DNA from: Deltaproteobacteria bacterium
GTDB taxonomy: Bacteria > Myxococcota > Myxococcia > SLRQ01
Length of the DNA stretch: 64,000 bases
Assembly (NCBI GenBank): GCA_029210625.1
Contig: JARGFU010000008.1
Span: 138,661 to 202,660 of the forward strand
Reading direction: 5' to 3'
The position numbers and the translations under genes were made by a program. Position 1 is the stretch's first letter. The number at the start of each line of letters is the position of its first letter. The notes beneath the pieces were generated by a model. That model had not been told where the DNA came from. It saw nothing but the letters and a program-made list of their open reading frames with translations, and did no database searches. Below, piece after piece: positions 6,071 through 50,115 of the stretch.

Positions 6071-6077
6071 TCTCGCC

Positions 6078-9000: not shown

Positions 9001-10439
9001 TGCCCGAGCTGATCGATCACAGCTTCTACCCGCAGGGCGAGGGGGCGACCCTGGCCGAGCGCGATCCCGTCGTGCCGATGACGATGTCGATCGAGCTCCT
9101 CCTGGAGCTCGCCCGCAAGGCCTTCCCCGGCCGCACCCCCGTCGCCCTCGAGGAGCTGCGGATGCACCAGTGGCTGCGGGTGCACCCGGCGGCGAAGGTG
9201 CAGCTCGTCGCCGAGCCCCGGGGAGACGATCGGGCCCACGTCGCCATCGAGGGCTTCTGCGAGGGCACCGTCCGCCTCGCCGACGCCTACCCCGCGCCGC
9301 CGGCCAGCCAGCTCCCCCCTCTCGCCGACGCCGGCCCGCCGCCCATCGACGCGGCCACCCTCTACGCCGACCGCTGGATGTTCCACGGGCCGGCCTACCA
9401 GGGCGTGCACACCATCGGCGCGCTCGGCGCCGGCGGCGTGGAGGGCAAGCTCAAGGTCACCGAGGGGCCCGGCGCCCTCCTCGACTCCCTCGGTCAGCTC
9501 TTCGGCTTCTGGCTGATGGCGACCCGCACCGAGGACAAGCTGGCCATGCCGATCGGCCTGGAGTCCCTCGAGCGCTTCGGCCCGCACCCGCAGGCTGGCG
9601 AGCTCCTCGACGCGCGGGTGCGGATCACTCACTGCGACGATCGCCGCCTGGTGGGGGACATGGAGGTCCTGCGCGGCGAGCAGGTCTGGTGCCGGATCCG
9701 CGGCTGGGCCGACCACCGCTTCCCCTCGGATCCGGACACCTGGAAGGTGCTGCAGCACCCCGAGCGCCACCGCCTCTCGGCGCGCCGGGAGCCCTACTTC
9801 CTCTTCGACGCCGCGCGCTGCCGGCCGCCCTCCCGGGACTGGCTGATCCGGCGGATGCTCTCGGAGCACGAGCGCACCACCCTCCTGGCCTCGGCGCCCC
9901 AGGCGCAGCGCGCCTACCTCCACGCGCGCATCGCCGGGAAGGACGCCGTGCGGAGCCTGCTGGAGCAGGGCGCCGAGCTCGCCGATCCTGGCGAGGCCAT
10001 CTTCCCCTCCACGCTCCCGCTCCTGGGCGATCACGAGGAGGGCCTGCGCCTGGCCGGCCCCCACGCTGGCGAGCTGAAGGTGGACGCCGCCACCGCCGGA
10101 GATCTCGCGGTGGCCCTCGCCTCCCGCAAGGGCGAGGTGGCCATCGCGCTCTACCCCCTGGGCAGCCTGCCGCCCGGCGCCCGCCAGGCGAGCTTCGCCA
10201 GCGACGAGCTGGATGCCGCGCGCGCAGCGGGCGCCGGTGACGACCTCGACGCCCGGCTCCACGTCTGCGCTGCCCGGGCCATCGCCTCCCGCCTGGCCGC
10301 GCGCGGCGGGGAGGCCGGGCCCCGCGAGGCGGACGCCGTGAGCGAGGGCCGGCCGGGCGGCCTGCGCGTCGGAGAGCTCTGGGTCGAGCTGCGGGTGGAC
10401 CTGGGCCACCTGGTGGCCTGGGCCCTGCGACCGGACTAG
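6078..10439 (+). CDS. Second PKS subunit: KS-AT-DH(hot-dog) plus a C-terminal ~230 aa tail with weak phosphopantetheinyl-transferase-like motifs.
   Basis: ATG at 6078 lies 8 nt after the upstream stop. The KS has DAACASS, EGHGTGT and GHTMPAAG. The AT has GHSIGEW. The hot-dog DH region has HQWLRVHP and LYADRWMFHGPAYQG. The tail contains LSEHERTTL and RIAGKDAVRSLLEQG, which resemble AcpS/Sfp motifs. Confidence 0.8.
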   Translation: MANSRGIAIVGLGARFPGAEDVEQFWRNIAAGHDAIGPVPEERIPGVFFDASTSSIDRLPCRRGGFLGASINLDVAAHGLMPVAARGAEPDQLLALDLATATFADAGYTEGGFDRSRTAVILGRGGYLGPGLVRADQSVRGAEQLAGLLRRLLPDLPLSRIEAIKDAYQEAAGPYGPDTAIGLVPNLAASRIANRLDLRGPAFTLDAACASSLLAVEQAMLLLETRRADHVLAGGIHLVQDPTFWSVFAQLGALSRSEAIRPFDARADGLLIGEGAGFFLLERLEDAEAAGHRIYAVIRGVGSASDGRGTSVMQPRAEGQRLALERAWEGSGLEPAHIGLVEGHGTGTTAGDGVELETLARFFGPAGEGPRASLGSVKSMIGHTMPAAGAAGLIKAALAIFHRSLPPSLHCEEPHPKLAATRFEVHVAARPWTTGPGEERVAAVNAFGFGGIDAHVVLSEAPAGSRRTHRVQALDRVEPSFPGLPDEERTGLPEVLRLAGDSPAALLAALERGEGPIGTGPCRLAVLQPTPERLARARRVVERGEPWRGRGGIWFAPEGLALQGGKVAFLFPGVDADFRPRVRELAEHFDLSLPPELEALEAEEAPRRPEAIDRTGMGIYRVNQLCFELLSRIGLFADAMAGHSIGEWSAMIHGGLLPQGAVEAFLEESGGQALEVPGVLFAAAACSVDDALDAMTDLEAIGLSHDNCPHQVILCGKEESIETARARLLSRGAVVQILPFRSGFHSRLFDDYLDPHRAHFERLPIEAAHTTVWSATTCSPFPVGADAVRELALRHLVEPVRFRELIEALYDHGHSIFVQVGTGSLPGFVSDTLGARPHLTVSVSDPKRGGLESLARLGAALFVEGIDLWAGIDRARRPGREAASGGGVETGSRGLELPLGAPFISVGEPLPFGSAGPRLPPPARGALRDPLRDEVEATLEDLSRMQAEILETYQQALRGRSRPVRQQRTLSVRTVPELIDHSFYPQGEGATLAERDPVVPMTMSIELLLELARKAFPGRTPVALEELRMHQWLRVHPAAKVQLVAEPRGDDRAHVAIEGFCEGTVRLADAYPAPPASQLPPLADAGPPPIDAATLYADRWMFHGPAYQGVHTIGALGAGGVEGKLKVTEGPGALLDSLGQLFGFWLMATRTEDKLAMPIGLESLERFGPHPQAGELLDARVRITHCDDRRLVGDMEVLRGEQVWCRIRGWADHRFPSDPDTWKVLQHPERHRLSARREPYFLFDAARCRPPSRDWLIRRMLSEHERTTLLASAPQAQRAYLHARIAGKDAVRSLLEQGAELADPGEAIFPSTLPLLGDHEEGLRLAGPHAGELKVDAATAGDLAVALASRKGEVAIALYPLGSLPPGARQASFASDELDAARAAGAGDDLDARLHVCAARAIASRLAARGGEAGPREADAVSEGRPGGLRVGELWVELRVDLGHLVAWALRPD

Positions 10440-10945
10440 GGGGCGTCCAGCACCTCGACGGGCGGCGGGGAGAGCGGCGCCTCGATCGGCGGCGGCGCGG
10501 CCTCGGCCGGCGGAACGAACTCTGCTGGAGGCACCAACGCTGCCGGCGGCGCGGCCATCGGCGGCGGAGGCGACCGATCCTTCCAGGCCCAGGAGGTCTT
10601 CATCGCCCGGCAGAAGGCGGCGTCCTTCAGCCCGCGCTGACCCGACTGCCAGTGGACGATCGTGGCGAGCGCCGCCGTCACCGGGAAGGCGATCAGCAAG
10701 CCGGTCCGGCGCTCCTGGCAGGTGTCGGAGAGGCGGGGCGTGTTGGCCGCCAGCAAGGCGCCGCCGATCCCCACCGCCGGCCAGAAGAGGCCGGCCATCG
10801 CGTGGTCCCCGACCGGGGCGAGGTAGCTCTCGTTGCAGACCGGCGGCTCCTGCTGCTCCCGGGCCTTCTCTCCCACGTAGGGGACCGCGATCAGGGAGCA
10901 GCCCGCGCAGGAGAGCAGCGCGCTGACGAGCAGCAGGCGCATCAT
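10436..10945 (-). CDS. Lipoprotein with a Pro/Ala-rich C-terminus (hypothetical).
   Basis: Start ATGATG reads MMRLLLVSALLSCAGCS, a signal peptide with a lipobox. Its start overlaps the upstream gene's stop as ATGA. The C-terminus is a low-complexity PPAEFVPPAEAAPPP run. The stop is convergent with the PKS2 stop. Confidence 0.6.
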   Translation of the reverse strand: MMRLLLVSALLSCAGCSLIAVPYVGEKAREQQEPPVCNESYLAPVGDHAMAGLFWPAVGIGGALLAANTPRLSDTCQERRTGLLIAFPVTAALATIVHWQSGQRGLKDAAFCRAMKTSWAWKDRSPPPPMAAPPAALVPPAEFVPPAEAAPPPIEAPLSPPPVEVLDAP

Positions 10946-25958: not shown

Positions 25959-26939
25959 CTACTGCAGGTGGATCGCGGCGCCCTCGGAGCGCCCGGCCCA
26001 GAGCACGGCCTGGGAGCCGCCGGCCAGGAGGTTGGTGACGCTGGCCGAGCGGGTCACCCCGAGGAAGGCGTTGCCGTTCTGGGCGCCGCCGTCCCGCACC
26101 GGGGCGAGGTACTGCGCCGGCACCTCGAAGCTGCCGGTGTCGTTGGTCACGCAGACCAGCATCGTCCCGGAGATCGCCGAGAGGTAGAAGAGGTCGGCCG
26201 GGGTCAGGGTGATCACGACGAGGTCGCCGCCGCCCGGCGTCCAGGTGATGGTCATCGGGGAGGAGGCCGGCTGCTGAGCCACCGTCGCGCCGGGGGTCGG
26301 CGAGATCAGCGCCATCTCCTGCGGGGTCGTCAGGTTGATCGAGAAGGCGCCGAGGTCCGGGCCGCCCATCGCGTTGGCGGTGATCACGTTGCCCTCGTTG
26401 AAGAGGGGCCGCGGCACGGAGCCGGCCGGCTGGTACTCCACGCCGCCGCTCACGGCGACGGGGTTCAGCGTCACCGCGCTGCCCGCGAGGCCGCCGACGA
26501 CGATCTGGCCGGCGTCGAAGCCGGGCAGGGTGGTCGGCGCGTTCGGATCGTAGGCCTCGTTGCTGCAGCCGGCGGGCGGGGGAGGATCGAAGACGTCGGT
26601 GACCACCGCCTCGACGGTCGAGAGGGGCACCTGCGGGATGTCGGTGAGGGTGATGATCGCCCGCATCGGGGTCCCGGTGCCGCCGTCGTCACCCCCGTCG
26701 GGGAGGCTCCCGTCGGGGATCCCGCCGTCGTCGCCGCCGTCGGGGTTTCCGCCTGCGTCGGAACTGCCGCCGTCCTCGCCGCCGTCGGGCCAGCCCCCGC
26801 CATCGTCGCCGCCGTCGACGCCCGCGTCCCGTCCTCCGTCCCGGTTCGGCGTGTCGAAGTCCGGCTCGTTGCGGCCGCCGCAGGCGGCCAGGAGAAGCAC
26901 GAGGGAAGCGGCGAGGGAGCAGGTGACGAGGTGCCTCAT
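25959..26939 (-). CDS. Lipoprotein with an Asp/Gly-rich DGG-repeat linker (hypothetical, Myxococcales-type).
   Basis: MRHLVTCSLAASLVLLLAACGG has a lipobox. The repeat region is DGGRDAGVDGGDDGGGWPDGGEDGG... A non-repetitive C-terminal domain follows. Confidence 0.65.
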   Translation of the reverse strand: MRHLVTCSLAASLVLLLAACGGRNEPDFDTPNRDGGRDAGVDGGDDGGGWPDGGEDGGSSDAGGNPDGGDDGGIPDGSLPDGGDDGGTGTPMRAIITLTDIPQVPLSTVEAVVTDVFDPPPPAGCSNEAYDPNAPTTLPGFDAGQIVVGGLAGSAVTLNPVAVSGGVEYQPAGSVPRPLFNEGNVITANAMGGPDLGAFSINLTTPQEMALISPTPGATVAQQPASSPMTITWTPGGGDLVVITLTPADLFYLSAISGTMLVCVTNDTGSFEVPAQYLAPVRDGGAQNGNAFLGVTRSASVTNLLAGGSQAVLWAGRSEGAAIHLQ

Positions 26940-27003
26940 GATCCTCCGGAGGATACCCGAATCGGGCCGACTTTGGGTGGGGGGCGGGTTAGAGTGTTCG
27001 CCC

Positions 27004-28203
27004 GTGGCGAATCTCGGCTACATCCAGGTGGTGAGGCACTGCAACCACGTCTGTGGCTTCTGCAGCAACCCGGTCACGCCCTACGTCCACACCTTCGACT
27101 CGATGAAGGTGCTGGTCGACGACTTCGTCGAGCGGGGCTACTACGGCGTCATCCTCACCGGCGGCGAGCCGACCCTCCACCCCGAGCTGCCGGCCATCTG
27201 CCGCTACGCCCGCGACCAGGGCCTGCACGTGCGGATGATCACCAACGGCTCGCGCCTCTCCGAGGAGGGCTTCGCCCGGGACATGGCCGAGGCCGGCCTG
27301 CAGCTGGCGCACATCTCGGTCTACTCGGTGCGCCCGGAGATCGAGGCGCAGCTGCGCGGCACCGAGGACACCCTCCCGGCGGCGCTGAGGTCGATCGAGA
27401 ACGCCCACAAGTTCGGCATCGACGTGAACCTCAACTGCGTCATCAACAAGCTCAACGCCGACCACCTCGACGAGAACATCCGCTACTTCATCGAGCACCA
27501 CCCCTACGTCCGGCACTTCGTCTGGAACAACCTCGACCCCTCCATGGGCCGGGCCGAGGCGAACCAGGCCCACTACCTCCACCGCCTGGTCGACTTCGAG
27601 GTCTCCCTCACCCGGGCCTGCTCCCTCCTGCAGAAGTCCGGCCGCACCTTCCGGGTGGAGAAGGTCCCCTTGTGCTTCATGACCGACTTCGCCTGGGCGA
27701 GCACCGAGACGCGGAAGATCGTGAAGGGCGAGGAGCGCATCGTGCACTTCCTCGACGCCAAGCAGACGGTGCGGCAGACCGAGTGGGGCCACCTCTACGC
27801 CGACGCCTGCGAGCCCTGCTCGCTCAAGACCATCTGCGCCGGCCTCTTCGACCGGGGCGAGGGCTACGATCCGGCCGAGTTGAACCCGGTCTTCGTCGAC
27901 CGCGACGCCATCGCCCGCCGGATCCTCTTCGACGGCCAGGATCCGGCCTTCGAGTTCCCGACCTTCGAGGCCTGGCGGATCGACTTCGACCGCCGCCTGA
28001 AGGCGCAGCGGGAGGAGGCCGAGGCGCGCGGCCCCCGCGATCGGGACCGCCCGCCGCAGGATCACAGCCTGAAGGTGGGCGAGGTCACCGAGAAGGGCCG
28101 CCGCCTCTTCGAGTCCAAGCGCGCCTCCGAGGAGCGCAAGGCCGCCGAGCGCGGCCTCTCCCTCGAGGGGCGCGAGGAGAGCGACGGCCCGGCCGAGGGC
28201 TGA
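27004..28203 (+). CDS. Radical SAM protein with a C-terminal SPASM/twitch-like Cys motif and a charged disordered tail.
   Basis: CNHVCGFC matches CxxxCxxC. The Gly-rich SAM motif is VILTGGEP. The C-terminal Cys cluster is CEPCSLKTIC. The start is uncertain among GTG 27004, GTG 26977 and ATG 26938. The ATG at 26938 would overlap the divergent lipoprotein start. Confidence 0.75.
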   Translation: MANLGYIQVVRHCNHVCGFCSNPVTPYVHTFDSMKVLVDDFVERGYYGVILTGGEPTLHPELPAICRYARDQGLHVRMITNGSRLSEEGFARDMAEAGLQLAHISVYSVRPEIEAQLRGTEDTLPAALRSIENAHKFGIDVNLNCVINKLNADHLDENIRYFIEHHPYVRHFVWNNLDPSMGRAEANQAHYLHRLVDFEVSLTRACSLLQKSGRTFRVEKVPLCFMTDFAWASTETRKIVKGEERIVHFLDAKQTVRQTEWGHLYADACEPCSLKTICAGLFDRGEGYDPAELNPVFVDRDAIARRILFDGQDPAFEFPTFEAWRIDFDRRLKAQREEAEARGPRDRDRPPQDHSLKVGEVTEKGRRLFESKRASEERKAAERGLSLEGREESDGPAEG

Positions 28204-39073: not shown

Positions 39074-40927
39074 ATGCGAAAGAAGCTTGCCATCGGCACC
39101 ACCCTGGTCGCCACCCTGGCTCTGGTCGGGTGCCCCAACCAGGGCAACTACGTTCCCCGGAGCTCCGGCTCCCTGGGTCTGACCTCCGACGACGCGACGC
39201 TCTTCGTCGCCGACACGGATCACAACCGGGTCACCATCATCGCCACCGCGACGATGGAGGTCCTCGGCCACATCCCCGTGGGCTCGGCCCCCGAGCGGAT
39301 CCTGGTCGGCCCCGACGACACCGTCTGGGTCACCAACCGCGCCGGCCGCACCGTGATGCGCATCCCCGCCGGCTCGATGGAGGTCGAGGCCACCGGCTCG
39401 GTCGGCGGTGAGCCCGTCGGCATGACCCTGACCGAGGACGGCAACCTCCTGGTCGCCAACTCGACCTCGGGCACCGTCTCCGTCCTCGACGCCCAGACCC
39501 TCGGCAACGTCGGCGAGATCCGCGTCGGTGGCACCCCCTGGGCCGTCACCGCGCTGGGCAAGACCGCCTACGTGACCGACCTCCTCTCCTCGCGAGTGGC
39601 CATCATCAACGTCGAGAGCGGTGAGCTCGAGGACGAGATGGAGATCGAGCACGAGCAGTCCGAGAACTGCTTCATGGGCAACGGCCCGCAGCGCGTCCCG
39701 AACCAGCCCGCCGACGTGGTCCTCTCCCCCGACGGCGACCGGGCCTACATCGCCCACGTGCTGGCGCGGACCGGCACCGACGGCTTCACCAACGACAACC
39801 TGAACCTGGCCGTGGCGCCGGCGGTCTCCACCGCCTCCACCTCTCGCAACATGATCCTCTCGGCCTCGACCCCGGCGTCCGACCCTGATCGCGACTACCC
39901 GGGCCAGATGCTCGCCTCCACCGACGACGAGTTCTGCGCCGCGGCGAACCAGGACTCCATGGACGCCCCGAGCTCCCTGGTCGTCGACTCCACCGGCGAG
40001 TGGATCTACGTGGCCGACCACAACTCCAACGCCCTGGCCATCGTCTCGGCCCGCAACAAGCAGTGGCCGACCTTCCTCGATCCCGAGCGCGGCATCGTCG
40101 ACCTGGTCCGGGTCGGCGCCCGCCCCACCGGCCTGGCCGTCCGCGGTGACCTCTCGGCGGCCTACGTCCACAACGCCTTCGACTACAGCATCTCCGTCGT
40201 CGAGCGGCAGGGCGAGCGCCTGGTGACCACCAACGAGATCGTCTTCAACGAGCCCCAGCTCACCCCGGCCCAGGAGAACGGCCGCCGCCTCTTCTACTCC
40301 GCGGTCGACCCCCGCATGACCGAGCCGGATCTGGGCGGCGTCTCCTGCTCCTCGTGCCACCCCGACGGCCGGACCGACAGCCTGAACTGGTCCCTGGCCG
40401 GCGGCCGCATCAACCCCATCGACCCCGACAACCGGATCGGCATCCAGACCCCGGCCCTCTGGGATCTGGCCGACACCGCCCCCTTCGCCTGGGACGGCTC
40501 GAGCCCCGATCTCGATAGCCTGGCCCACGTGATGGTCTCCTGGATGGGCGGCCGCGGCCTGGCCCAGACCGAGGCCGAGGACATCCTGGCCTACATGGAC
40601 ACCATCAGCCCGCCGGACAACCCCGCCGCCGAGATCCTGCCCCAGGCGCAGCTCGACGAGGGCCGGATCCTCTTCCAGTCCAACTGCGCCGGCTGCCACG
40701 CTGGCACCTCCTTCACCGACGGTCAGCAGCACCCGACCGCCTCCGGCGGCGGCCTGGTGAACACGCCCACCCTCAAGGGCGTCTTCGCCACCGGCCCCTA
40801 CCTCCACGACGGCTCGGCCCGCACCCTGCAGGAGGCCTTCTCTCGCGGCCTGCAGACCGGCCACAACGCCGACGGCCTCAACGCGGTGCAGAAGGAGGCC
40901 CTCGAGGTCTACCTGAAGACCCTCTAG
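39074..40927 (+). CDS. Lipoprotein fusing a YVTN-type beta-propeller to a di-heme cytochrome c peroxidase (CCP/MauG-family) domain.
   Basis: Strong SD AAGGAGAG upstream. MRKKLAIGTTLVATLALVGC has a lipobox. Repeated beta-propeller blades follow. The two heme sites are SCSSCHPDGRTD and NCAGCHAG. TPTLKGVFATGPYLHDGSARTL matches the conserved CCP second-heme region. Confidence 0.75.
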   Translation: MRKKLAIGTTLVATLALVGCPNQGNYVPRSSGSLGLTSDDATLFVADTDHNRVTIIATATMEVLGHIPVGSAPERILVGPDDTVWVTNRAGRTVMRIPAGSMEVEATGSVGGEPVGMTLTEDGNLLVANSTSGTVSVLDAQTLGNVGEIRVGGTPWAVTALGKTAYVTDLLSSRVAIINVESGELEDEMEIEHEQSENCFMGNGPQRVPNQPADVVLSPDGDRAYIAHVLARTGTDGFTNDNLNLAVAPAVSTASTSRNMILSASTPASDPDRDYPGQMLASTDDEFCAAANQDSMDAPSSLVVDSTGEWIYVADHNSNALAIVSARNKQWPTFLDPERGIVDLVRVGARPTGLAVRGDLSAAYVHNAFDYSISVVERQGERLVTTNEIVFNEPQLTPAQENGRRLFYSAVDPRMTEPDLGGVSCSSCHPDGRTDSLNWSLAGGRINPIDPDNRIGIQTPALWDLADTAPFAWDGSSPDLDSLAHVMVSWMGGRGLAQTEAEDILAYMDTISPPDNPAAEILPQAQLDEGRILFQSNCAGCHAGTSFTDGQQHPTASGGGLVNTPTLKGVFATGPYLHDGSARTLQEAFSRGLQTGHNADGLNAVQKEALEVYLKTL

Positions 40928-40940
40928 CGGCCCTCACGCC

Positions 40941-41012
40941 GCGCCCCTCTCCCGCTCGCGGGAGGGGGGGAAGCAGCCCCTCTCCGGAAGCGGAGGGGGG
41001 CTTCGCTTTTTT
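40941..41012 (+). terminator. Rho-independent terminator: tandem GC-rich hairpins followed by a T-run.
   Basis: The first hairpin is gcgcccctctcccgc-tcgc-gggaggggggg. The second is cccctctccggaagcggagggggg with G-U wobbles, followed by cttcgcTTTTTTg. It lies 14 nt after the CCP-like stop. Confidence 0.6.
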
Positions 41013-41182: not shown

Positions 41183-42934
41183 ATGACCGCGCTCCCCGAC
41201 ACCGCCGAGACCCGGCTCCCCCTCGCTCACCTCGAGGGTCCGCCGATGCCCGCCCTCGAGGTGGAGACTCTCCCGGCCGCCCTGGCCCGGGCCGCCGGCT
41301 CCCACCCCGATCGCACCTACCTCGGCTTCCTCGACGCCAAGAACGAGCCCACCGAGGTCAGCTTCGGCGCCCTGCAGGCGGGCTCCGAGGCCTTCGCCCG
41401 GGCCCTGCTGGCCTGGGAGCTCGAGCCCGGCGAGCGGGTGGTGCTCCTCCTCCCCACCGGCCCGGACTTCCTCGAGGCCTTCTTCGGCACCCTCCTGGCC
41501 GGAGGCGTGCCCGTCCCCTGGCCCCTGCCCCTGACCATGGGCCGGATCGACGCCTACGTGGAGGGCACCGTCGCCCGGATCGTCGCCGACGCCGGGGCGA
41601 GCCACTGCATCACCACCGATCGGGCCGAGGAGTCCCTCGGCCGGGTGATGGAGGGCCTCGGCAAGCCCGGGCGCGTGAAGACCATGGAGGCCCTGCGGGC
41701 GGACGAGGCTCCGGCGGCGGACTTCCCCGCGCTCTCTCCCGACGGCCTCGCGCTCCTGCAGTACACCTCCGGCCGCACCCACCTGCCGGGCGGCGTCCGC
41801 CTCACTCACCGTCAGCTCCTCTCGAACGTCGCCGGCGTCGGGCAGGCCCTGGCCCTGGGCGAGGACGACGTGGGCATGAGCTGGATCCCCCTGGTCCACG
41901 ACATGGGCCTGGTCGGCGTGCTCTGCTCCAGCCTCTACTTCCGCTTCCCCTCCTACGTGATGGCCCCCGAGGCCTTCCTGATGCGGCCCTACCGCTGGCT
42001 GCAGGCCATCTCGACCTTCAAGGCCACCCTCTCCGCCGCGCCCAACTTCGCCTACCGCCTCTGCGTGCGGAGGGTGAGCGACCGCTACCTCGAGGGGGTC
42101 GACCTCTCCAGCTGGCGCCTGGCCCTGAACGGCGCCGAGCAGGTGCAGCCGGACTCCTGTGACGCCTTCGCCGAGCGCTTCGCCGGGGTGGGCTTCCAGA
42201 AGTCGGCCTTCTATCCCCTCTACGGCCTGGCCGAGAACGCCCTGGCCGCGACCTGCCCGCTCTTGGATCGCACCTACGAGACCTACCCCTTCGACGCGAC
42301 CATCGAGAAGGGCGAGCTGGTCGCCGCCTCTCCCTCGCCGGAAGCAGGCGCGCCCGTCGCCTCGGTGGGCCGGCCTCTGCCGGGCCAGGAGATCGCCATC
42401 GTGGACGCCGCCGGCGAGCTCCTCCCCGAGCGGCACCAGGGCAAGATCGTCGTGCGCGGCGTCTGCCTGATGGAGGGCATCCACGGCCGCCCCGAGCGCA
42501 CCTCCGAGCTGAAGGCCGGGGGCTGGCTGCAGACCGGTGACCTCGGCTTCATCGAGGATGGCCGCCTCTTCGTGACCGGCCGCCTCAAGGAGATGGTCAT
42601 CAAGATGGGGCGCAACTACTACCCGGACGACGTGGAGCAGGTGCTCCTCGACGCCGGCGTGCTGGAGGGCCGGCGCGTCACCGCCCTGGCGACGGGCAAC
42701 GCCGAGAGCGGCACCGAGGACCTCCTGCTCGTCCTCGAGGGGCCCGCCTTCGACGAGGCGGATCCGAAGGCCCGGAAGGCCTTCGAGAACACCCTGAGCG
42801 CCACCCTCCTCGATCAGCTCGGCATCCGCGCCGACCGCATCCTCCACCTGGCCCCGGGGCACCTCGGCGAGGGCGACGCCAGCGCCCGCCGGGCCGCGAT
42901 CCGCACGCTGCTGCGCGAGGAGAGCGCGGCATGA
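41183..42934 (+). CDS. Fatty acyl-AMP ligase (FAAL) / AMP-dependent synthetase.
   Basis: LQYTSGRTHLPGGVRLTHRQLLSN is the FAAL-type A3-A4 region. GWLQTGDLGFIEDGRLFVTGRLKEMVIKMGRNYYPDDVE spans the A8-A10 region. The start is MTALPD at 41183; the upstream part of the listed ORF is unsupported. Confidence 0.85.
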   Translation: MTALPDTAETRLPLAHLEGPPMPALEVETLPAALARAAGSHPDRTYLGFLDAKNEPTEVSFGALQAGSEAFARALLAWELEPGERVVLLLPTGPDFLEAFFGTLLAGGVPVPWPLPLTMGRIDAYVEGTVARIVADAGASHCITTDRAEESLGRVMEGLGKPGRVKTMEALRADEAPAADFPALSPDGLALLQYTSGRTHLPGGVRLTHRQLLSNVAGVGQALALGEDDVGMSWIPLVHDMGLVGVLCSSLYFRFPSYVMAPEAFLMRPYRWLQAISTFKATLSAAPNFAYRLCVRRVSDRYLEGVDLSSWRLALNGAEQVQPDSCDAFAERFAGVGFQKSAFYPLYGLAENALAATCPLLDRTYETYPFDATIEKGELVAASPSPEAGAPVASVGRPLPGQEIAIVDAAGELLPERHQGKIVVRGVCLMEGIHGRPERTSELKAGGWLQTGDLGFIEDGRLFVTGRLKEMVIKMGRNYYPDDVEQVLLDAGVLEGRRVTALATGNAESGTEDLLLVLEGPAFDEADPKARKAFENTLSATLLDQLGIRADRILHLAPGHLGEGDASARRAAIRTLLREESAA

Positions 42935-43944
42935 GCTCGGTGGTGGTCGGCGGCACGGGCTTCATCGGCCTGAACCTCTGCGAGGCGCTCCTCGCCCGCG
43001 GAGAGGACGTCGTCTCCACCCGCCGCAAGTCGAGCAACACCATCTTCGCCCGGCGGCTGAAGCTGCCGCTGGTGCCCGCCGATCTCGAGACCGGCGAGGG
43101 CCTCGCCGAGGCCCTCGAGGGGCGCGAGACCCTCTACTTCGCCGCCGGCCACTATCCCCGCTACTCGGTCGACACCGAGGCCCAGGTCGAGATGGCCGTG
43201 CGCCACCTGCGCGGCGTCCTCGAGGCGGCCCGCGAGGCCGGCCTGCGGCGGGTGGTCTACGTGGGCACCGTCTCCACCGTCGGCAAGGCGCCGGCCGGGG
43301 CGCTGGCCACCGAGGAGGACGGACTGACCGCTCCGGAGGAGGGGGACACCTACGCCGCGATCAAGCTGGCCCTCTCCGAGGCCGCCCTCTCGGCCAACGG
43401 AGAGGGGCTCGAGGTCGTCGAGCTGATGCCCACCGGCGTGCTCGGCCCCTACGACCACAAGGTCGGCACCGGCTTCTTCCTCCTCGGCCAGCTCTCGGAG
43501 AAGCTCGACTTCTGGATCGAGGGCAAGGTGAACTTCATCGACGCTCGCGATCTGGCCGAGGCCGCCATCGCGGCGGCCGAGCGCGGCAAGCCCGGCGAGC
43601 GCTACATCCTCGGCGGCCACAACATCACGGTCGAGGACTTCGTGAAGCAGATCGCCGATCGCTTCGAGGTCCCCGTCCCGGCGCGACGCCTCGATCTGGC
43701 CGCCGCGCGCGCGCTGGCCCACGCCGAGGAGGCGCGGGTCCTCGCCGAGGGCAAGGGCCGCCCGCTGCTGACCCGCGAGATGGCGGATGCCATCGGCGAC
43801 GGTCAGTTCGTCGACATCTCCCGGGCGAGGGCCTCCCTGGGCCTCTCGCCCCGCCCCCTGAACGAGACCCTGGATGCCGCCGTCGGGTGGTATCGCAAGA
43901 ACGGATTCCTTCCGCGGGAGACCCCCGCCAGGAGAACAGCATGA
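42931..43944 (+). CDS. Extended-SDR NAD(P)-dependent reductase (epimerase/dehydratase fold), candidate thioester reductase.
   Basis: VVGGTGFIGLNL is a TGxxGxxG Rossmann motif. A YxxxK region is present (YAAIK). Start and stop overlap the neighbours as ATGA on both sides. Confidence 0.8.
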   Translation: MSSVVVGGTGFIGLNLCEALLARGEDVVSTRRKSSNTIFARRLKLPLVPADLETGEGLAEALEGRETLYFAAGHYPRYSVDTEAQVEMAVRHLRGVLEAAREAGLRRVVYVGTVSTVGKAPAGALATEEDGLTAPEEGDTYAAIKLALSEAALSANGEGLEVVELMPTGVLGPYDHKVGTGFFLLGQLSEKLDFWIEGKVNFIDARDLAEAAIAAAERGKPGERYILGGHNITVEDFVKQIADRFEVPVPARRLDLAAARALAHAEEARVLAEGKGRPLLTREMADAIGDGQFVDISRARASLGLSPRPLNETLDAAVGWYRKNGFLPRETPARRTA

Positions 43945-44195
43945 GCGACCGCAAGGAAGAACTTCAGACCGCCGTCTTCGAGATCGTGGCCGAGCTGGTC
44001 AGCGCCGAGCCGGGCGAGATCAAGGGCGAGGATCGCCTCCGCGAGGACCTGGGCCTCGACTCCCTGCAGAGCATGGAGCTGCTCTCCCGCGTGAGCGAGA
44101 CCTTCGAGATCGATCCCGACCTCGAGGAGGTCATGGATCTGGCCACCGTCGAGGAGGTGATCACCTCCCTCGCCGCCCACCTGGAAGGCGCGTGA
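43941..44195 (+). CDS. Acyl carrier protein.
   Basis: The 84 aa product has EDLGLDSLQSMELL, a DSL phosphopantetheine-attachment motif. Confidence 0.85.
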   Translation: MSDRKEELQTAVFEIVAELVSAEPGEIKGEDRLREDLGLDSLQSMELLSRVSETFEIDPDLEEVMDLATVEEVITSLAAHLEGA

Positions 44196-45499
44196 TGAAG
44201 GTCACCTTCGTCTATCCCGGCTTCGAGCGGCACGCCGAGGCGCACCCCGAGCTCCTCGAGTTCGTCCCGGCGGACGAGTACCTCGGCCCGCCCTCCCTGG
44301 GTATCGCCTCGGTGGCGGCCGCCACCCCCGAGCAGTACGAGGTCGCCTTCATCGACGACCGCCTGACGCCCGTCGACGCCGGCCTCGAGACCGACGTCGT
44401 CGCCCTCTCCTTCTTCACCCCGGCCGCGACCCGGGCCCTGGAGATCGCCGACCAGATGCGGGCGGCGGGCAAGACCGTCGTCGCCGGCGGCATCTTCCCC
44501 ACCCAGATGCCCGACGTCGTCGCCGAGCACGTCGACGCCGTGGTCGTGGGCGAGGGTGAGCCGGTCTGGGCCGACCTCCTGGCCGACGCCGAGAAGGGCT
44601 CGCTGAAGAAGAAGTACGTCGCGCCGCCGCACGACCTCTCCACCTCGCCGGTCCCGCGGGTCGACCTCTACTTCAACGCCGAGACCGAGGGGCACCACCC
44701 GGACGACTACCCCTTCCAGCTCTCCCGGGGCTGCCCCCTCACCTGCGACGCCTGCGTGCTGCCCATCCACATGGGCAAGAAGATGCGCTTCTACTCGCAG
44801 GAGCAGCTCGAGGCGACGATGCGGGCCTACGCCGACGCCGGCAAGATGGTCTCCCTGACCGAGGACACCTCGATCTTCGGCCTCCAGGGCGCCCGGAAGC
44901 ACCTGCGGGAGTTCCTCGACACCACCCTGCGCCTCCAGCAGGAGGGTGTGAAGGTGAAGATCTCCTACCTCGGCATCTCGATGCCGATGATCCTCAACCT
45001 CGATCCGACGCTGCTCCAGCAGATGCGGTCGACGGGGATGGATCGCTTCTACCTGGTGGGCGGCTTCGACCCCATCACCCGCAACGCCTTCGGCCCGAAC
45101 GACCCCAAGGCGCTGGAGAAGGCCTACAAGGTCATCGCCCGCTGCAAGGAGTTCGGGATCGATCCCTACGTCTCCTTCCTCGTGGGCAACGAGGGTGACG
45201 ACGAGGGCACCTTCGATCGGATGCTGGAGTTCGCCAGCAAGTCCGGGATCGAGCTGGCCGAGTTCGTGGTCTCGACCCCCTACCCGGGCACCCCGATCTG
45301 GCACCGCTACCAGGAGGAGGGTCGGATCTTCGACCACACCTGGAAGCACTACAACGACGCGAACGTGGTCTTCGAGCCGCACCAGATGAGCCCGGAGCGC
45401 CTGCAGGAGGGCTACCTCTACCTGTGGCGCGAGTTCTACCGGGGTCGTCAGGCCGAGTTCGACGAGCGTTCGCACCAACGCAGCACCGTTCAGTTCTAG
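44195..45499 (+). CDS. Cobalamin-dependent (class B) radical SAM enzyme.
   Basis: The N-terminal B12-binding Rossmann region is DVVALSFFTPAATRALEIADQMRAAGKTVVAGGIFPT. The radical SAM motif is SRGCPLTCDAC (CxxxCxxC). The product is 434 aa. The ATG overlaps the ACP stop by 1 nt. Confidence 0.8.
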   Translation: MKVTFVYPGFERHAEAHPELLEFVPADEYLGPPSLGIASVAAATPEQYEVAFIDDRLTPVDAGLETDVVALSFFTPAATRALEIADQMRAAGKTVVAGGIFPTQMPDVVAEHVDAVVVGEGEPVWADLLADAEKGSLKKKYVAPPHDLSTSPVPRVDLYFNAETEGHHPDDYPFQLSRGCPLTCDACVLPIHMGKKMRFYSQEQLEATMRAYADAGKMVSLTEDTSIFGLQGARKHLREFLDTTLRLQQEGVKVKISYLGISMPMILNLDPTLLQQMRSTGMDRFYLVGGFDPITRNAFGPNDPKALEKAYKVIARCKEFGIDPYVSFLVGNEGDDEGTFDRMLEFASKSGIELAEFVVSTPYPGTPIWHRYQEEGRIFDHTWKHYNDANVVFEPHQMSPERLQEGYLYLWREFYRGRQAEFDERSHQRSTVQF

Positions 45500-45508
45500 A
45501 GGTACACC

Positions 45509-47140
45509 ATGGGCACCGAGACCGTTCACGCTTTCGAGAGGATTCACGAGGATCACGCAGCGCTCGCCGAGGCGCTGAATCTCGTGGGGGCCACCGCCGA
45601 GGAAGCCGAGAGCGTCTCGATGCTCGTGGACCCGGTGCGGCGCTGGGCGAACGACACGCTCGACGCCGCCGCCATCGAGGAGGCGCACGCGATCTCCCCG
45701 CAGATCCGGGCCTCGGCCGCCGAGATGGGCCTCTACGGCCTGACCATCCCCGAGAAGTTCGGCGGCGCCGGCTTCTCGCTGGTGGGCTCCGGCCGGATCA
45801 TCGAGGAGATCGCCCGGGTGGACCGCTCGGTGGCGGTCTCCATCGGCCTGCACAACGGCCTCGGCCTGCGCGGGATGATCGCCTACGCCTCGGACGACCT
45901 GCAGGCGAAGTTCCTCGAGCAGATGGCCACCGGCGAGCTGATCGGGGCCTTCGCCGCCACCGAGCCGGGCGCCGGCTCGCACATCGCCGGCGTGAAGACC
46001 ACCGGGGTGATGGACGAGGAAGACCCGACCCTGCTCACCGTCAACGGTGAGAAGGTCTACGTCACCAACGGCGGCTTCGCCGACGTCTTCACCGTGCTGG
46101 CCCGCACCCCGGGCCTCGGCGGCGCCCGCCGCGGCTACTCCCTCCTCTTCCTCGAGAAGACGATGGAGGGCCTCGAGGTCGGCCGCGAGGAGGACAAGCT
46201 CGGCATCCGCGCCTCCTCCACCACCGGCCTGACCTTCGAGGACCTGCGGGTCTCCACCGACCGCGTCATCGGCGAGCCCGGCAAGGGCCTGGACCTGATG
46301 AACTGCATCCTGGCCTGGGGCCGGACCCTGATGAGCGCCGGCGCCCTCGGCGGCGCCAAGACCGCCTACGAGATGGCGATGAGCCACGCGCTCACCCGCA
46401 GGCAGTTCGGCAAGCCCATCGCCGAGTTCGGCCAGGTCCGGGAGAAGCTCGCCCGGATGCGGGCGCGCATCTACGCCATGGAGAGCCTGGTGCGCCTCAC
46501 CGGGCTGCTCCAGGCCCGCCACGGCTCGGACGTCATCTGGACCTCCACCGCCACCAAGATCTTCTGCTCGGACGGCGCCGTCGAGATCGCCGACGAGGCC
46601 ATCCAGATCCACGGCGGCGCCGGCTTCATCGAGGAGGTGGGCGTCGCCCGCATCCTGCGCGACTGCCGGATCACGCAGATCTTCGAGGGCGCCAACGAGG
46701 TCCTGCGCTTCCACCTCGCCGCCGGCGCGCTGCCCTTCGCCGGCACCGAGGCCGGCGCCATCGCCGGGCTCTTGCCCGAGGCGTTGAAGGCCCAGGGCGA
46801 GCGCTGGGACGCCCTCCAGGCCCGCACCCGCACGCTGCTCTCCTCCATGGCCAAGAAGTACGGCCCGCGGATCATGGAGCACCAGCTGCGGCTGGCCGGC
46901 GTCGCCGACGCCTTCACGGCCCTCGTCGCCCTCGAGGCGAGCCTGCTGCGCGCGGGCCACGCCCTGAAGACGGCCTCCGGGGAGGAGGCCCGCGAGCTGA
47001 CCGAGCTCGTGACCTACCTCACGGCCCTGCTCGCCCGCGAGGCCGAGGCAGGTCTGGCCTCGGCCGAGGACGAGGCCTTCGAGACGGCGGCCAACGCGCT
47101 CTCCTCGACCGAGATCGAGTCCGCGCGTGCCCGACTTTGA
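45509..47140 (+). CDS. Acyl-CoA/acyl-ACP dehydrogenase family flavoprotein.
   Basis: ACAD middle and C-terminal segments include GSGRIIEEIARVDRSVAVSIGLHNG, AFAATEPGAGS, YVTNGGFADVF and IHGGAGFIEE. The product is 543 aa with an extended C-terminus. Confidence 0.85.
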   Translation: MGTETVHAFERIHEDHAALAEALNLVGATAEEAESVSMLVDPVRRWANDTLDAAAIEEAHAISPQIRASAAEMGLYGLTIPEKFGGAGFSLVGSGRIIEEIARVDRSVAVSIGLHNGLGLRGMIAYASDDLQAKFLEQMATGELIGAFAATEPGAGSHIAGVKTTGVMDEEDPTLLTVNGEKVYVTNGGFADVFTVLARTPGLGGARRGYSLLFLEKTMEGLEVGREEDKLGIRASSTTGLTFEDLRVSTDRVIGEPGKGLDLMNCILAWGRTLMSAGALGGAKTAYEMAMSHALTRRQFGKPIAEFGQVREKLARMRARIYAMESLVRLTGLLQARHGSDVIWTSTATKIFCSDGAVEIADEAIQIHGGAGFIEEVGVARILRDCRITQIFEGANEVLRFHLAAGALPFAGTEAGAIAGLLPEALKAQGERWDALQARTRTLLSSMAKKYGPRIMEHQLRLAGVADAFTALVALEASLLRAGHALKTASGEEARELTELVTYLTALLAREAEAGLASAEDEAFETAANALSSTEIESARARL

Positions 47141-48344
47141 TGGCAGACCGGCGCCCCCCTCTCACGATCTGATCGTCGTCGGGGGCGGCATCGTGGGCCT
47201 GGCCTGCGCTCACGCGGCGCTGGTGGCCCACCCCGACTGGCGGGTCCTGGTCCTGGAGAAGGAGGCCGAGCTCGCCGCGCACCAGACCGGCCGCAACTCG
47301 GGGGTGATCCACTCGGGGATCTACTACACCCCGGGCTCCGCCAAGGCCCGGCTCTGCCGGGCGGGCCGCGAGCAGCTGATCGACTTCTGCACCGCCGAGG
47401 GCGTGCCCTTCGAGCTCTGCGGGAAGGTGATCGTCGCGGCGTGCCCCGAGGAGCTGCCGGCCCTCGACCTGCTCCTGGCCCGCGGAGAGGAGAACGGCGT
47501 CGACTGCGAGCTGGTCGAGGCGGCCGGCCTCCACGCCCTCGAGCCCCACGCCGGGGGGCTGGCCGCCCTCCACGTGCGGGACGCGGGCATCGTCGACTTC
47601 GGTCAGGTGGCCCGGAAGCTCGCCGAGAAGATCGAGGCCGCCGGTGGCGAGATCCGCCGGAGCTGCGCGGTCACCTGCCTGATCGCGGCGAGCCCCGAGG
47701 CGGCGGCGGTCTACCTCGATGACGGCAGCCTCCTGCGCGCAAGCCGGGCCATCGCCTGCGCCGGCCTCCACTCGGACCGGCTGGCCGAGAAGAGCGGCCT
47801 CTCGAGCCCGGTGCGGATCGTCCCCTTCCGGGGCGAGTACCACGAGCTCAAGCCCACCGCGGCCGCCTGGGTGAAGGGCCTGATCTACCCCGTGCCCGAT
47901 CCCCGCTACCCCTTCCTGGGGGTGCACCTCACCCGCCACATCGACGGCCGGGTCTCCTGCGGGCCCAACGCGGTGCTGGCCTGGGCCCGGGAGGGCTACC
48001 GGCGGGGCGCCTTCTCCCTGCGGGACGCCACCGAGAGCCTCCGCAGCCGGGGGCTGCGCCGGCTCATGCGCCAGAACCTGCGCACGGGCCTCGCCGAGCT
48101 GCGCCGCTCCTACTCGCGGCGGCGCTTCGCCGCGGACGCCGCGAGGCTCCTGCCGGGGCTGAAGGCGTCGGATCTGCGGCCCGGCCGCCCGGGGATCCGG
48201 GCGCAGGCCCTCCTCCCCGACGGGCGCCTGGCCGACGACTTCGTGATCCTGAGCGACGGCCCCGTCACGCACGTCCTCAACGCCCCCTCCCCGGCCGCGA
48301 CGGCTTCCCTCGCCATCGGAGCGCACATCGCCGGTATGCTGTAG
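47127..48344 (+). CDS. FAD-dependent oxidoreductase, L-2-hydroxyglutarate oxidase (LhgO)-like.
   Basis: IVVGGGIVGLACA is a GxGxxG motif. NSGVIHSGIYY is the LhgO/L2HGDH signature. GTG start overlaps the ACAD gene by 14 nt. Confidence 0.75.
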   Translation: MPDFDGRPAPPSHDLIVVGGGIVGLACAHAALVAHPDWRVLVLEKEAELAAHQTGRNSGVIHSGIYYTPGSAKARLCRAGREQLIDFCTAEGVPFELCGKVIVAACPEELPALDLLLARGEENGVDCELVEAAGLHALEPHAGGLAALHVRDAGIVDFGQVARKLAEKIEAAGGEIRRSCAVTCLIAASPEAAAVYLDDGSLLRASRAIACAGLHSDRLAEKSGLSSPVRIVPFRGEYHELKPTAAAWVKGLIYPVPDPRYPFLGVHLTRHIDGRVSCGPNAVLAWAREGYRRGAFSLRDATESLRSRGLRRLMRQNLRTGLAELRRSYSRRRFAADAARLLPGLKASDLRPGRPGIRAQALLPDGRLADDFVILSDGPVTHVLNAPSPAATASLAIGAHIAGML

Positions 48345-48365: not shown

Positions 48366-49205
48366 ATGGGGATCCTGGGCAGGAGCGACGGAGTCCGGCC
48401 GAAGCGCGAGCACGTGCTGCGCAAGATCATGCCTCACCTGATGCCGACGCGGACCGAGGCGATCGTCTACTTCGATCAGGAGATCCCGATCACGGGCACG
48501 CGCGCCTACCTGGCACAGCACGAGGAGGTGAACCTCTTCCAGGTCATCCTGGCGGCGATGGCCCGGGCCCTGGCCGAGCGGCCGGGGCTCAACCGCTTCG
48601 TCGCCGGCCGGAAGATCTACCAGCGCGAGGAGGTCGCGATCTCCTTCGCGGTGAAGAAGCAGTTCTCGGACAAGGCCAAGCTCACGACCGTGAAGGTGAT
48701 CTTCGAGGCCGAGGACACCCTCGCGAAGGTCGGCGAGCGGGTGAAGGAGGCCGTCGGCGTGGGCAAGGCGGAGAAGGACACCTCCTCCGAGAAGGAGATG
48801 AACCTCGCCAGCTACCTGCCTCGCTCGCTCATCCGCTTCTTCGTCTGGTTCCTGCGGGTGGCCGACTACTGGGGGTTGATCCCGGGGGCGATGCTCAAGA
48901 ACGACCCCCTCTACGCCAGCCTCTTCGTGGCGAACCTCGGCAGCGTCGGCCTCGACGCCGCCTACCACCACCTCTTCGAGTACGGCACGGTCCCCCTCTT
49001 CGCCGTCGTCGGGAAGACGAAGAAGGTCCCCTACGTGAAGGAGGACGACACCGTCGGCGTGCGCGAGGTGGTGCCGATCCGCTACACCTTCGACGAGCGG
49101 ATCAACGACGGCTTCTACTGCGTGAAGAGCCTGGAGAACATGGCTCGATATGTCGAGCAGCCCGAGTTGCTCGAGGCACCCGGAGCTGCTGGGTCGATCG
49201 ACTGA
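48366..49205 (+). CDS. 2-oxoacid-dehydrogenase E2 catalytic-domain-like (CAT-fold) acyltransferase.
   Basis: Strong SD AAGGAGAG upstream. YTFDERINDGFY aligns to the E2 DHRxxDG catalytic motif, but with Glu in place of the His. The fold assignment is by eye. Confidence 0.55.
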   Translation: MGILGRSDGVRPKREHVLRKIMPHLMPTRTEAIVYFDQEIPITGTRAYLAQHEEVNLFQVILAAMARALAERPGLNRFVAGRKIYQREEVAISFAVKKQFSDKAKLTTVKVIFEAEDTLAKVGERVKEAVGVGKAEKDTSSEKEMNLASYLPRSLIRFFVWFLRVADYWGLIPGAMLKNDPLYASLFVANLGSVGLDAAYHHLFEYGTVPLFAVVGKTKKVPYVKEDDTVGVREVVPIRYTFDERINDGFYCVKSLENMARYVEQPELLEAPGAAGSID

Positions 49206-49788: not shown

Positions 49789-50115
49789 ATGTTCTTGGCC
49801 GTGAGCAGCAAGAAGGATCGCCGTCGTCTCCCCCGGATGCGCCTCGGGTGCGTGATGGAGTACCGGATCGAGGGCACCGAGGAGGTGGTCGAGGGCTACG
49901 CCAAGACCGTCAGCGGTGGCGGCCTCTCCTTCGAGAGCGACCGCGCCCTGGAGCCGGGCACCCTCGTCGAGATCAAGGTCGACCCGCCCCTGCGCCTGAC
50001 CAACGCCCTCACCGGCGTGATCGAGGTGACGCGCTGCGAGCCGATCGACACCGGCCGCGGCATGCCCTACGCGGTCGCCGGCGACTTCAAGAAGATCGGC
50101 TCGGCGGCCGGTTGA
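49789..50115 (+). CDS. PilZ-domain (c-di-GMP-binding) protein.
   Basis: KDRRRLPR matches the RxxxR motif. KTVSGGGLSF matches the D/NxSxxG motif. The product is 108 aa. Confidence 0.7.
   Translation: MFLAVSSKKDRRRLPRMRLGCVMEYRIEGTEEVVEGYAKTVSGGGLSFESDRALEPGTLVEIKVDPPLRLTNALTGVIEVTRCEPIDTGRGMPYAVAGDFKKIGSAAG

Follow-up and report, generated by a model that had tools for sequence, protein, structure and literature searches.

The stretch analysed here (the window) is a segment of 64,000 nucleotides from contig JARGFU010000008.1 of a Deltaproteobacteria bacterium placed in the Myxococcota, and the gene under study, at positions 44195 to 45499 of its forward strand, encodes a radical S-adenosylmethionine (SAM) enzyme with a B12-type N-terminal domain. 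Given that the window has approx. 72% G+C, raw lists of open reading frames (ORFs) are noisy, and the coding ORFs were picked by a frame analysis of third-codon-position G+C (GC3). In this analysis a run of genes on the forward strand stands out, from approx. 41.1 to 49.2 kb; it forms an operon of seven translationally coupled genes that encode a fatty acyl-AMP ligase (FAAL), a short-chain dehydrogenase/reductase (SDR), an acyl carrier protein (ACP), the radical SAM enzyme, an acyl-CoA dehydrogenase (ACAD), an L-2-hydroxyglutarate-oxidase-like (LhgO-like) protein and a protein similar to the E2 component of 2-oxoacid dehydrogenases. The radical SAM ORF lies within a high-GC3 coding frame, and its product of 434 residues is 100% identical to MDF1563303.1, an entry from a Deltaproteobacteria metagenome-assembled genome (MAG) that carries only the name 'radical SAM protein'. 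The features of the operon, where VLCAD stands for very-long-chain acyl-CoA dehydrogenase, are the following:

40975–41012, + strand: intrinsic-terminator-like hairpin (12-bp stem with 9 G-C pairs, then a T-run) that ends the upstream gene and sets the 5' boundary of the operon.
41183–42934, + strand: FAAL, with its ATG at 41183 (AMP-binding, 1e-57).
42931–43944, + strand: extended SDR of the NAD-epimerase/3-beta-HSD type (Epimerase, 1.3e-28), overlapping the FAAL stop in an ATGA.
43941–44195, + strand: dedicated ACP of 84 residues (PP-binding, 8.5e-13) with the motif GLDSLQS; the phosphopantetheine Ser41 is at 44061–44063.
44195–45499, + strand: radical SAM enzyme of class B architecture, with a B12-type Rossmann domain (approx. 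residues 1–135), a radical SAM barrel (approx. 170–360) and DUF4070 (approx. 366–416).
44732–44755, + strand: CX3CX2C motif CPLTCDAC (C180, C184, C187), site of the radical SAM [4Fe-4S] cluster.
45509–47140, + strand: VLCAD/ACAD9-like long-chain acyl-thioester dehydrogenase, with three ACAD domains and the ACAD9/ACADV C-terminal domain.
47127–48344, + strand: L-2-hydroxyglutarate-oxidase-like FAD enzyme (NF008726, 505 bits against a cutoff of 299), overlapping the ACAD stop by 14 nt.
48366–49205, + strand: E2 (2-oxoacid-dehydrogenase) catalytic-domain-like protein (PF00198, 1.4e-13), the last gene of the operon.

The junction between the ACP and the radical SAM gene is as the sequence-only reading of this stretch had described it, with a single base shared by the ACP stop (TGA, 44193–44195) and the following start (ATG, 44195–44197); the ACAD gene in turn starts 9 nt past the radical SAM stop. 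The gene that follows the E2-like gene runs convergently, and no Rfam matches were detected in the window. The E2-like protein lacks a lipoyl domain and carries DERINDG where the E2 motif is DHRILDG (DHRxxDG), i.e., its catalytic His is replaced by Glu. The coupling of an L-2-hydroxyglutarate-oxidase equivalog to a lipid cassette is odd for an enzyme of central metabolism, and this protein might act here on a 2-hydroxyacyl compound. Directly upstream of the operon, and separated from it by the strong terminator, a gene on the same strand (39074–40927, +) encodes a YVTN/NHL beta-propeller fused to a di-haem cytochrome c peroxidase/MauG-like domain.

The enzyme had been assigned to class B from the sequence alone, and at the level of architecture this assignment was borne out. 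The protein matches the Pfam models B12-binding (PF02310; 42.6 bits against a cutoff of 32.1, residues 33–125), Radical_SAM (PF04055; 40.1 bits against 29.5, residues 176–347) and DUF4070 (24.7 bits against 22, residues 366–416), and the CX3CX2C motif, which places it in the radical SAM superfamily, is retained in 90/90 related loci. In an alignment of 30 members, C180, C184 and C187 are the sole invariant cysteines; therefore, the enzyme is expected to carry one cluster and no auxiliary site. The invariant residues of the N-terminal domain in the same alignment are numerous and include PxxLG..AA, G36/A38/A41/A42, D54-D55-R56, S72/F74/T75/P76, G98-G99 and G119-E120-G121. An AlphaFold2 model built from this alignment (pLDDT 92.5, pTM 0.90) shows the N-terminal domain as a five-strand Rossmann fold, in agreement with the N-terminal B12-domain architecture of class B, and its best fold matches all belong to the class B fold group.

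Regarding the cofactor, the N-terminal domain matches by sequence the cobalamin-binding domains of CysS and TokK, and the family profile aligns with the B12 domain of CysS with an E value of 6.7e-6. In the alignment with TokK, which is weak (E 0.59), the lower-axial Trp76 is in register with the invariant S72-F73-F74-T75-P76 loop, falling on P76 with F74 two residues before. This loop would be compatible with the hydrophobic environment of the radical methylases; the alignment was too weak to assign a lower-axial residue of the cobalamin, and that assignment was dropped. The top structural neighbour of the model is AprD4 (PDB 6FD2), a radical SAM 1,2-diol dehydratase that has a similar Rossmann domain and is approx. 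20% identical to the window enzyme, but the likeness in sequence is confined to the barrel and the C-terminus (residues 175–406), leaving out the N-terminal domain. An aminoglycoside is the substrate of AprD4, which does not bind cobalamin (PMC12931638). Since the closest solved fold binds none, cobalamin binding is kept here as a prediction, which we consider probably correct.

The enzyme has numerous close relatives and belongs to none of the named families. A word-indexed search returned at least 120 clusters with 55–86% identity over the full length, and nearly all those that carry a taxon name are from MAGs of Myxococcota, 'Deltaproteobacteria', Myxococcales or Polyangiaceae. An exhaustive HMMER search that covered 1.84 billion representatives revealed a sharp family edge, with one representative at 56% identity, the next at 42–44%, and then others at 30–38%. 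No curated NCBIfam cutoff is reached by the window enzyme, which scores 77 bits against TIGR04013 (cutoff 251), 44.2 bits against HpnJ (TIGR03471, hopanoid radical SAM; cutoff 578), 43.7 bits against BchE (TIGR02026, anaerobic Mg-protoporphyrin cyclase; equivalog cutoff 481), 41 bits against the MgmA-type model (cutoff 360), 40.9 bits against TIGR04072 ('lipid biosynthesis B12-binding/radical SAM protein'; cutoff 360), 28.8 bits against HpnR (TIGR04367, hopanoid radical SAM; cutoff 650) and 27.7 bits, in the C-terminal region only, against the AprD4 family NF033070 (cutoff 500). BchE, HpnR, HpnJ, TIGR04072, MgmA, PhpK, KedN5 and AprD4 were thus rejected as families for this protein, all of them far under their curated cutoffs. 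The nearest out-groups are likewise unnamed and reach at most 71.4 bits with TIGR04072. The sequence-only reading had held that a placement among BchE- or HpnR-type enzymes would speak against an ACP-bound substrate, and these scores do not give that placement. The window gene is the founding example of a Myxococcota family, unnamed and tightly conserved, of radical SAM enzymes with class B architecture; it fits the architectural definition of class B, yet it constitutes a new, well-delimited subfamily.

The genomic context of this family was analysed in 92 related loci, onto which the window proteins were mapped; partners were counted in those 26 non-redundant loci whose flanks cover 5 kb or more upstream and 1.8 kb or more downstream, provided that they were on the same strand and within 6 kb. 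The ACP and the ACAD are both present in 26/26 of these loci, so that their adjacency to the radical SAM gene is not due to chance; the SDR was found in 22 and the FAAL in 20. In the closer relatives (57–86% identity) the gene order is [KS]-[FAAL]-SDR-ACP-rSAM-ACAD, where KS stands for a ketosynthase and rSAM for the radical SAM gene, and in a remoter sub-clade (51–56% identity) it is FAAL-SDR-ACP-ACAD-rSAM. Altogether the ACAD is upstream of the radical SAM gene in 12 of the 26 loci and downstream in 14. Hence the earlier observation that an ACAD follows the enzyme stands as regards a fixed partner, but not as regards its position. The same gene set is kept through the swap of the ACAD and the radical SAM gene, which indicates a functional unit. 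The smallest version, ACP-rSAM-ACAD, occurs in two loci (L031 and L044), and the ACP is usually located immediately upstream of the radical SAM gene, with a start/stop overlap.

The catalytic residues of the partners are equally well conserved. The motif DS[LVMI] of the ACP is kept in 73/73 related cassettes and IFEG[AST]N[DE], with the catalytic Glu of the ACAD, in 71/71, and the GxxGFxG and YxxxK motifs of the SDR are kept across loci. No homologue of the LhgO-like or of the E2-like protein was found beside the cassette in any other locus; these last two genes of the operon lie outside the conserved unit, and both were rejected as cassette members, the E2-like protein also for its missing catalytic His. 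De novo clustering of the flanking ORFs disclosed no other widespread partner, the next groups being present in at most 16 of 91 loci: KS, alpha-oxoamine synthase (AOS), CoA-transferase, a Crp/Fnr regulator, and an unannotated group of 16 loci with no Pfam match. The Crp/Fnr-family regulator (cNMP-binding plus HTH_Crp_2) recurs beside cassettes in which the ACAD precedes the radical SAM gene (L048, L057, L069, L071, L072, L089 and L090; for example L057:5829-6701), and could reflect redox or oxygen control. The new fixed module is therefore composed of the ACP, the radical SAM enzyme and the VLCAD-like ACAD.

The partners with a more variable distribution suggest what precedes and what follows the action of this module. 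All the top NCBIfam matches of the FAAL are FAAL families (PRK09192, 388 bits, under the cutoff of 600), and its predicted task is to charge the dedicated ACP with a free long-chain fatty acid. In many loci a gene for a FabF-like KS lies ahead of the cassette, at times in place of the FAAL. After the cassette, four loci (L001–L003 and L016) have a second FAAL and a type I polyketide synthase (PKS) with the domains KS-AT-ACP, where AT is an acyltransferase, and five (L006, L031, L032, L038 and L044) have an AOS directly after the ACAD. The best matches of this AOS are serine palmitoyltransferases (NF047600, 370 bits against a cutoff of 640), with 362 bits for the BioF/Kbl family. The AOS sub-clade (FAAL-ACP-rSAM-ACAD-AOS) has no SDR; its additional conserved neighbours are an unannotated protein of approx. 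500 residues and, upstream, a family III CoA-transferase (e.g., L044:3358-6050, 9344-10537). These variable partners (KS, AOS and type I PKS) suggest that the acyl-ACP is passed to another enzyme.

Among solved structures, the best relatives of the ACAD are ACAD9 (260 bits) and VLCAD (252 bits), and its catalytic-Glu motif IFEGANE aligns with IFEGTNE of ACAD9; this similarity fits a long-chain thioester as the likely substrate. The ACAD is distant from the MbtN-type acyl-ACP dehydrogenases (NF037942, 67.7 bits against a cutoff of 700), and for this reason we infer its use of an ACP thioester from gene context only. The SDR scores 193 bits with the HpnA model (cutoff 368), 120 bits with SdmB and 85 bits as OleD-like, and its nearest solved structures are 2x4g and 3wj7, both uncharacterised proteins, followed by cinnamoyl-CoA reductases. 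It is predicted to be a keto- or thioester-reductase, and could serve as ketoreductase for the product of the KS or the AOS.

Several known systems share part of this organization. In the biosynthesis of mycobactin (MbtM-MbtL-MbtN), a FAAL loads a fatty acid onto a stand-alone ACP and an enzyme of the ACAD family carries out an alpha,beta-dehydrogenation on the carrier; lipid-tail modules of this type, of mycobactin and of lipopeptides, thus have the same three activities as the FAAL, ACP and ACAD of the window. Nevertheless, the Mbt models are weak on the window proteins (MbtN as given above; MbtM, 233 bits against 621), the window ACAD is of the long VLCAD type, no nonribosomal peptide synthetase or acyltransferase partner accompanies the cassette, and the Mbt-type modules have no radical SAM enzyme.

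In the bacterial ceramide module, an acyl-ACP synthetase and an ACP, both dedicated, are combined with an epimerase-type reductase and Spt (PMC9386255); this module, AasR-Epi-AcpR-Spt, is encoded by CC_1162-1165 in Caulobacter and by ECD_RS14830-14845 in E. coli BL21. The order FAAL-SDR-ACP of the window is that of ECD_RS14830-14840 in E. coli BL21(DE3), with the radical SAM and ACAD genes standing where spt is, and in both clusters the ACP stop overlaps the next start (spt in E. coli, the radical SAM gene in the window). In contrast, the ceramide module has neither a radical SAM enzyme nor an ACAD. Identity to the E. coli BL21 proteins is 34% for the FAAL, 25% for the SDR (E 4e-8) and 33% for the ACP (E 2e-7), and that of the sub-clade AOS to its counterpart in the ceramide cluster is 36%; the SDR and the ACP correspond here to Epi/CerR and AcpR, and the window SDR scores higher with the HpnA model (193 bits). 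A tblastn search detected no homologue of Spt or YghO in the 64-kb window. Orthology with the ceramide cluster was not adopted: the order matches, but the homology is generic and the window has no Spt; therefore, the ceramide cluster is treated as an architectural analogue and the window operon is not counted as a member of that group.

As to the enzyme itself, the class B enzymes with thioester-tethered substrates, CysS, TokK and ThnK, are only 13–17% identical to it. Both CysS and TokK have additional domains at the C-terminus and exceed its length by approx. 200 residues; they act on an aromatic ether and a carbapenam instead of a fatty acyl chain, and neither is encoded with an ACAD. Among the structure matches, the solved structures of both carry pantetheinylated ligands, and given this precedent the claim that a carrier-bound acyl chain is an unusual substrate class for the family was overstated in general terms; it holds for a fatty acyl-ACP, which has no characterised precedent among class B enzymes (PMC13459092). 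The membrane-spanning-lipid synthases Mss and Tes were also considered and set aside, since they are absent from the fold matches and the Mss paper does not call them B12-domain enzymes.

The remoter relatives bring in another group of lipid clusters. At 32–38% identity there are fusion homologues: P0131 and P0132 are fusions of the radical SAM enzyme with a KS and, optionally, a chain-length factor (CLF), i.e., rSAM-KS-(CLF) (L014:8001-11762), P0152 is fused to a CrtI-like flavoenzyme of the phytoene-desaturase family, and P0206 to a PLD-like domain. The neighbours of P0131 are genes for KS-CLF, ACP, a GCV_T-fold protein, a ketoreductase (KR) and an AT; those of P0123 (43% identity) are an ApeP/FabA-like dehydratase, a KS/CLF pair, a glycosyltransferase, an aminotransferase and an amine-oxidase-type flavoenzyme. 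P0129 belongs to a pair of radical SAM genes in tandem, beside CrtI-like fragments, and the contig of P0124 was too short for its context to be judged. In L101:2-2449, on a low-GC contig from a different lineage, two paralogous B12-radical SAM genes lie in tandem, each 30% identical to the family of the other, and are followed by CrtI-like fragments. These contexts resemble the 'ladderane-type' type II fatty acid synthase (FAS-II) clusters of anammox bacteria and Desulfotalea (PMC2649909). Like the window operon, those clusters (TIGR04072, Kuste2803-type, antiSMASH 'ladderane') hold a B12-domain radical SAM enzyme among ACP-dependent fatty-acid genes together with a flavin desaturase, and the nearest out-groups of the family sit in KS/CLF-ACP-dehydratase clusters with CrtI-like genes. 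They differ in that their flavoenzyme is of the phytoene-desaturase type, whereas the window operon has an ACAD and a FAAL as loader, and lacks the KS/CLF pair, the dehydratase and the KR; the function of both kinds of cluster is putative.

Concerning the enzyme, its architecture, cluster motif, family edges, co-occurrence with the ACP and the ACAD, and the catalytic motifs of its partners are directly in evidence. Because the ACP and the ACAD are present in all 26 loci counted, the set survives rearrangement, and KS fusions occur in remoter relatives, we hold with good confidence that the substrate of the radical SAM enzyme is an acyl chain tethered to the ACP; in this respect comparative genomics strongly backs the carrier-bound acyl substrate that the sequence-only reading had proposed from the window. 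With moderate confidence we favour a scheme in which an acyl-ACP loaded by the FAAL or the KS is acted on by the ACAD and the radical SAM enzyme and then handed on, with methylation as the likeliest modification; the three Pfam domains above their cutoffs and the class B fold matches argue in its favour. In this scheme, the FAAL would adenylate a free long-chain fatty acid and load it onto the dedicated ACP, or, in some lineages, a FabF-like KS would load the ACP by elongation. The ACAD would then introduce an alpha,beta double bond into the thioester-tethered chain, and the radical SAM enzyme, with a 5'-deoxyadenosyl radical and probably a base-off cobalamin in its N-terminal domain, would functionalise a C-H bond of the same chain. 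In class B, the most frequent outcome is methylation via methylcobalamin, and C-methylation by this route would be the single likeliest result here, O2-independent desaturation and the formation of a ring or C-C bond being the alternatives; taken specifically, methylation is put forward tentatively, at slightly less than an even chance. The tailored acyl-ACP would finally pass to a lineage-specific condensing enzyme (KS, Spt-like AOS or type I PKS), or be processed or released by the SDR. The order of these steps and the type of reaction are weakly inferred.

Several considerations weigh against this interpretation. The family has been assigned by sequence and context, and its FAAL, SDR and ACP are only generically related (25–34% identity) to the proteins of the ceramide pathway. 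ACADs normally use CoA thioesters, and that of the window is far from the MbtN type. The closest solved fold, AprD4, is that of a non-cobalamin enzyme, the alignment of TokK Trp76 with the S-F-F-T-P loop is weak, and the contexts of the out-groups are mixed, P0127 (42% identity) being a stand-alone gene in an unrelated neighbourhood. Furthermore, methylating and non-methylating class B enzymes are structurally alike (PMC12931638), and a B12-radical SAM lipid desaturase that is independent of O2, Ted, has been described (bioRxiv 10.1101/2025.10.20.683597).

These last two points lead to the alternative that survives best, namely that the module and the ACP-tethered substrate are as proposed, but what the radical SAM enzyme catalyses, together with the ACAD, is an O2-independent desaturation, a cyclisation or a C-C coupling and not a methylation. 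It would parallel the pairs of radical SAM enzyme and phytoene-desaturase-like protein of the 'ladderane-type' clusters, or the tetraether desaturase Ted, which as a B12-radical SAM enzyme desaturates inert lipid carbons; the B12-radical SAM enzymes that act on lipids now comprise ring synthases in addition to Ted (bioRxiv 10.1101/2025.10.20.683597). The CrtI-like flavin desaturases fused to or beside remoter relatives (P0152, L013 and L101) indicate that the wider clade has repeatedly been paired with a flavin desaturase, anaerobic synthesis of polyunsaturated fatty acids (PUFAs) or ladderanes was the role that Rattray et al. proposed for the ladderane-type clusters (PMC2649909), and the non-methylating enzymes of class B bear no distinguishing structural mark (PMC12931638). 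However, that function of the ladderane-type clusters is itself a proposal, the window enzyme falls far short of TIGR04072 (40.9 against 360 bits), most of the characterised class B enzymes are methyltransferases, and the invariant F74/P76 loop, when set against W76 of TokK in that weak alignment, suits the environment under the corrin of a radical methylase. We regard this alternative as unlikely, although it deserves attention.

A quite improbable explanation is that the N-terminal domain binds no cobalamin and that the enzyme is an AprD4-like dehydratase or isomerase, with the SDR as its reductase, acting on an oxygenated acyl-ACP. AprD4 is paired with AprD3 as reductase partner, and 22 of the 26 cassettes have an NAD(P)-dependent SDR; the fact that AprD4 itself binds no cobalamin also agrees with this idea (PMC12931638). 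On the other hand, the similarity to AprD4 is limited to residues 175–406, with 27.7 bits against the 500 required by NF033070, and the N-terminal domain exceeds the B12-binding cutoff of Pfam and is alignable with the CysS and TokK domains that bind cobalamin. The SDR is moreover dispensable, since the FAAL-ACP-rSAM-ACAD-AOS sub-clade does without it, and for a 3-hydroxyacyl-ACP a dehydratase of the FabZ type would be a simpler solution. Finally, it is very improbable that the substrate is not carrier-bound (a finished membrane lipid, sterol, hopanoid or CoA ester) and that the ACP works for the FAAL, KS or AOS steps alone: most characterised lipid-modifying radical SAM enzymes do act on finished isoprenoid lipids (PMC13459092), the top curated matches of the SDR are associated with hopanoids or sterols (HpnA and SdmB), the ACAD is closest to the CoA-dependent VLCAD/ACAD9 and one out-group member (P0127) stands alone, but the ACP adjoins the gene in all 26 loci, usually directly upstream with a start/stop overlap, the smallest cassette (L031, L044) keeps the ACP without a loader, relatives are fused to a KS, the cutoffs of HpnA, SdmB, HpnR and HpnJ are missed by wide margins, and none of the annotated related loci showed hopanoid, squalene cyclase or sterol cyclase genes.

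Other genes of the window are also worth mentioning. At its left end there is a pair of PUFA-synthase-like genes, the first of which (2–6070, + strand) runs off the end and encodes an NMO-type enoyl reductase fused to KS-AT-...-KR, with more than 2022 residues, and the second (5919–10439, + strand) a KS-(CLF/AT)-PS-DH protein. A link between these genes (2–10439) and the cassette was rejected, given that they are approx. 30 kb away, with unrelated genes between, and were not seen near the cassette elsewhere; they probably represent a separate lipid pathway of the same genome. A second and unrelated radical SAM ORF (26554–28203, + strand) encodes 549 residues with a Radical_SAM match of 2.2e-23 and no B12 domain reported. 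A small protein encoded at 49789–50115 (+ strand) scores 25.7 bits with TIGR02266, under the cutoff of 68.7; we take this model to represent paralogous domains of the PilZ type, which are typical of Myxococcota; the match would be consistent with the taxonomy of the window.

According to a 2026 review, lipid modification by radical SAM enzymes takes place nearly always on isoprenoid lipids, and among lipids that derive from fatty acids only the ladderanes and the product of Jaw5 have been proposed as cases (PMC13459092). Our literature searches found no published description of the ACP-rSAM-ACAD cassette, and among the papers covered by these searches only this review and a ladderane preprint pair a cobalamin-dependent radical enzyme with an acyl-ACP. 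The probable substrate of the enzyme described here is a fatty acid bound to a carrier, and such an activity would be new for its class. A further-reaching proposal, possible but on balance doubtful, is that the trio carries out the O2-independent tailoring of an ordinary fatty acid on a dedicated carrier, as the first B12-type radical SAM enzyme that acts on a fatty acyl-ACP, and that its product (methyl-branched, desaturated or cyclised, and 2-enoyl) enters sphingolipid-like long-chain bases, via the Spt-like synthase, or polyketide lipids of uncultured Myxococcota. If so, in the Spt-linked variants the alpha,beta-dehydrogenation before condensation would yield a 4,5-unsaturated (sphingosine-type) base without oxygen. 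The cassette is compact (five genes) and highly conserved, and its partners (FAAL, stand-alone ACP and flavin dehydrogenase) are standard to reconstitute, which makes it much more tractable than the large ladderane clusters of anammox bacteria for learning how a B12-type radical SAM enzyme acts on a fatty acyl chain held by a carrier. Confirmation of this activity would give the class B enzymes a new substrate class; it could also bring to light a new lipid of uncultured Myxococcota, of potential use as a biomarker, and possibly show how long-chain bases with branches or double bonds can be made anaerobically.

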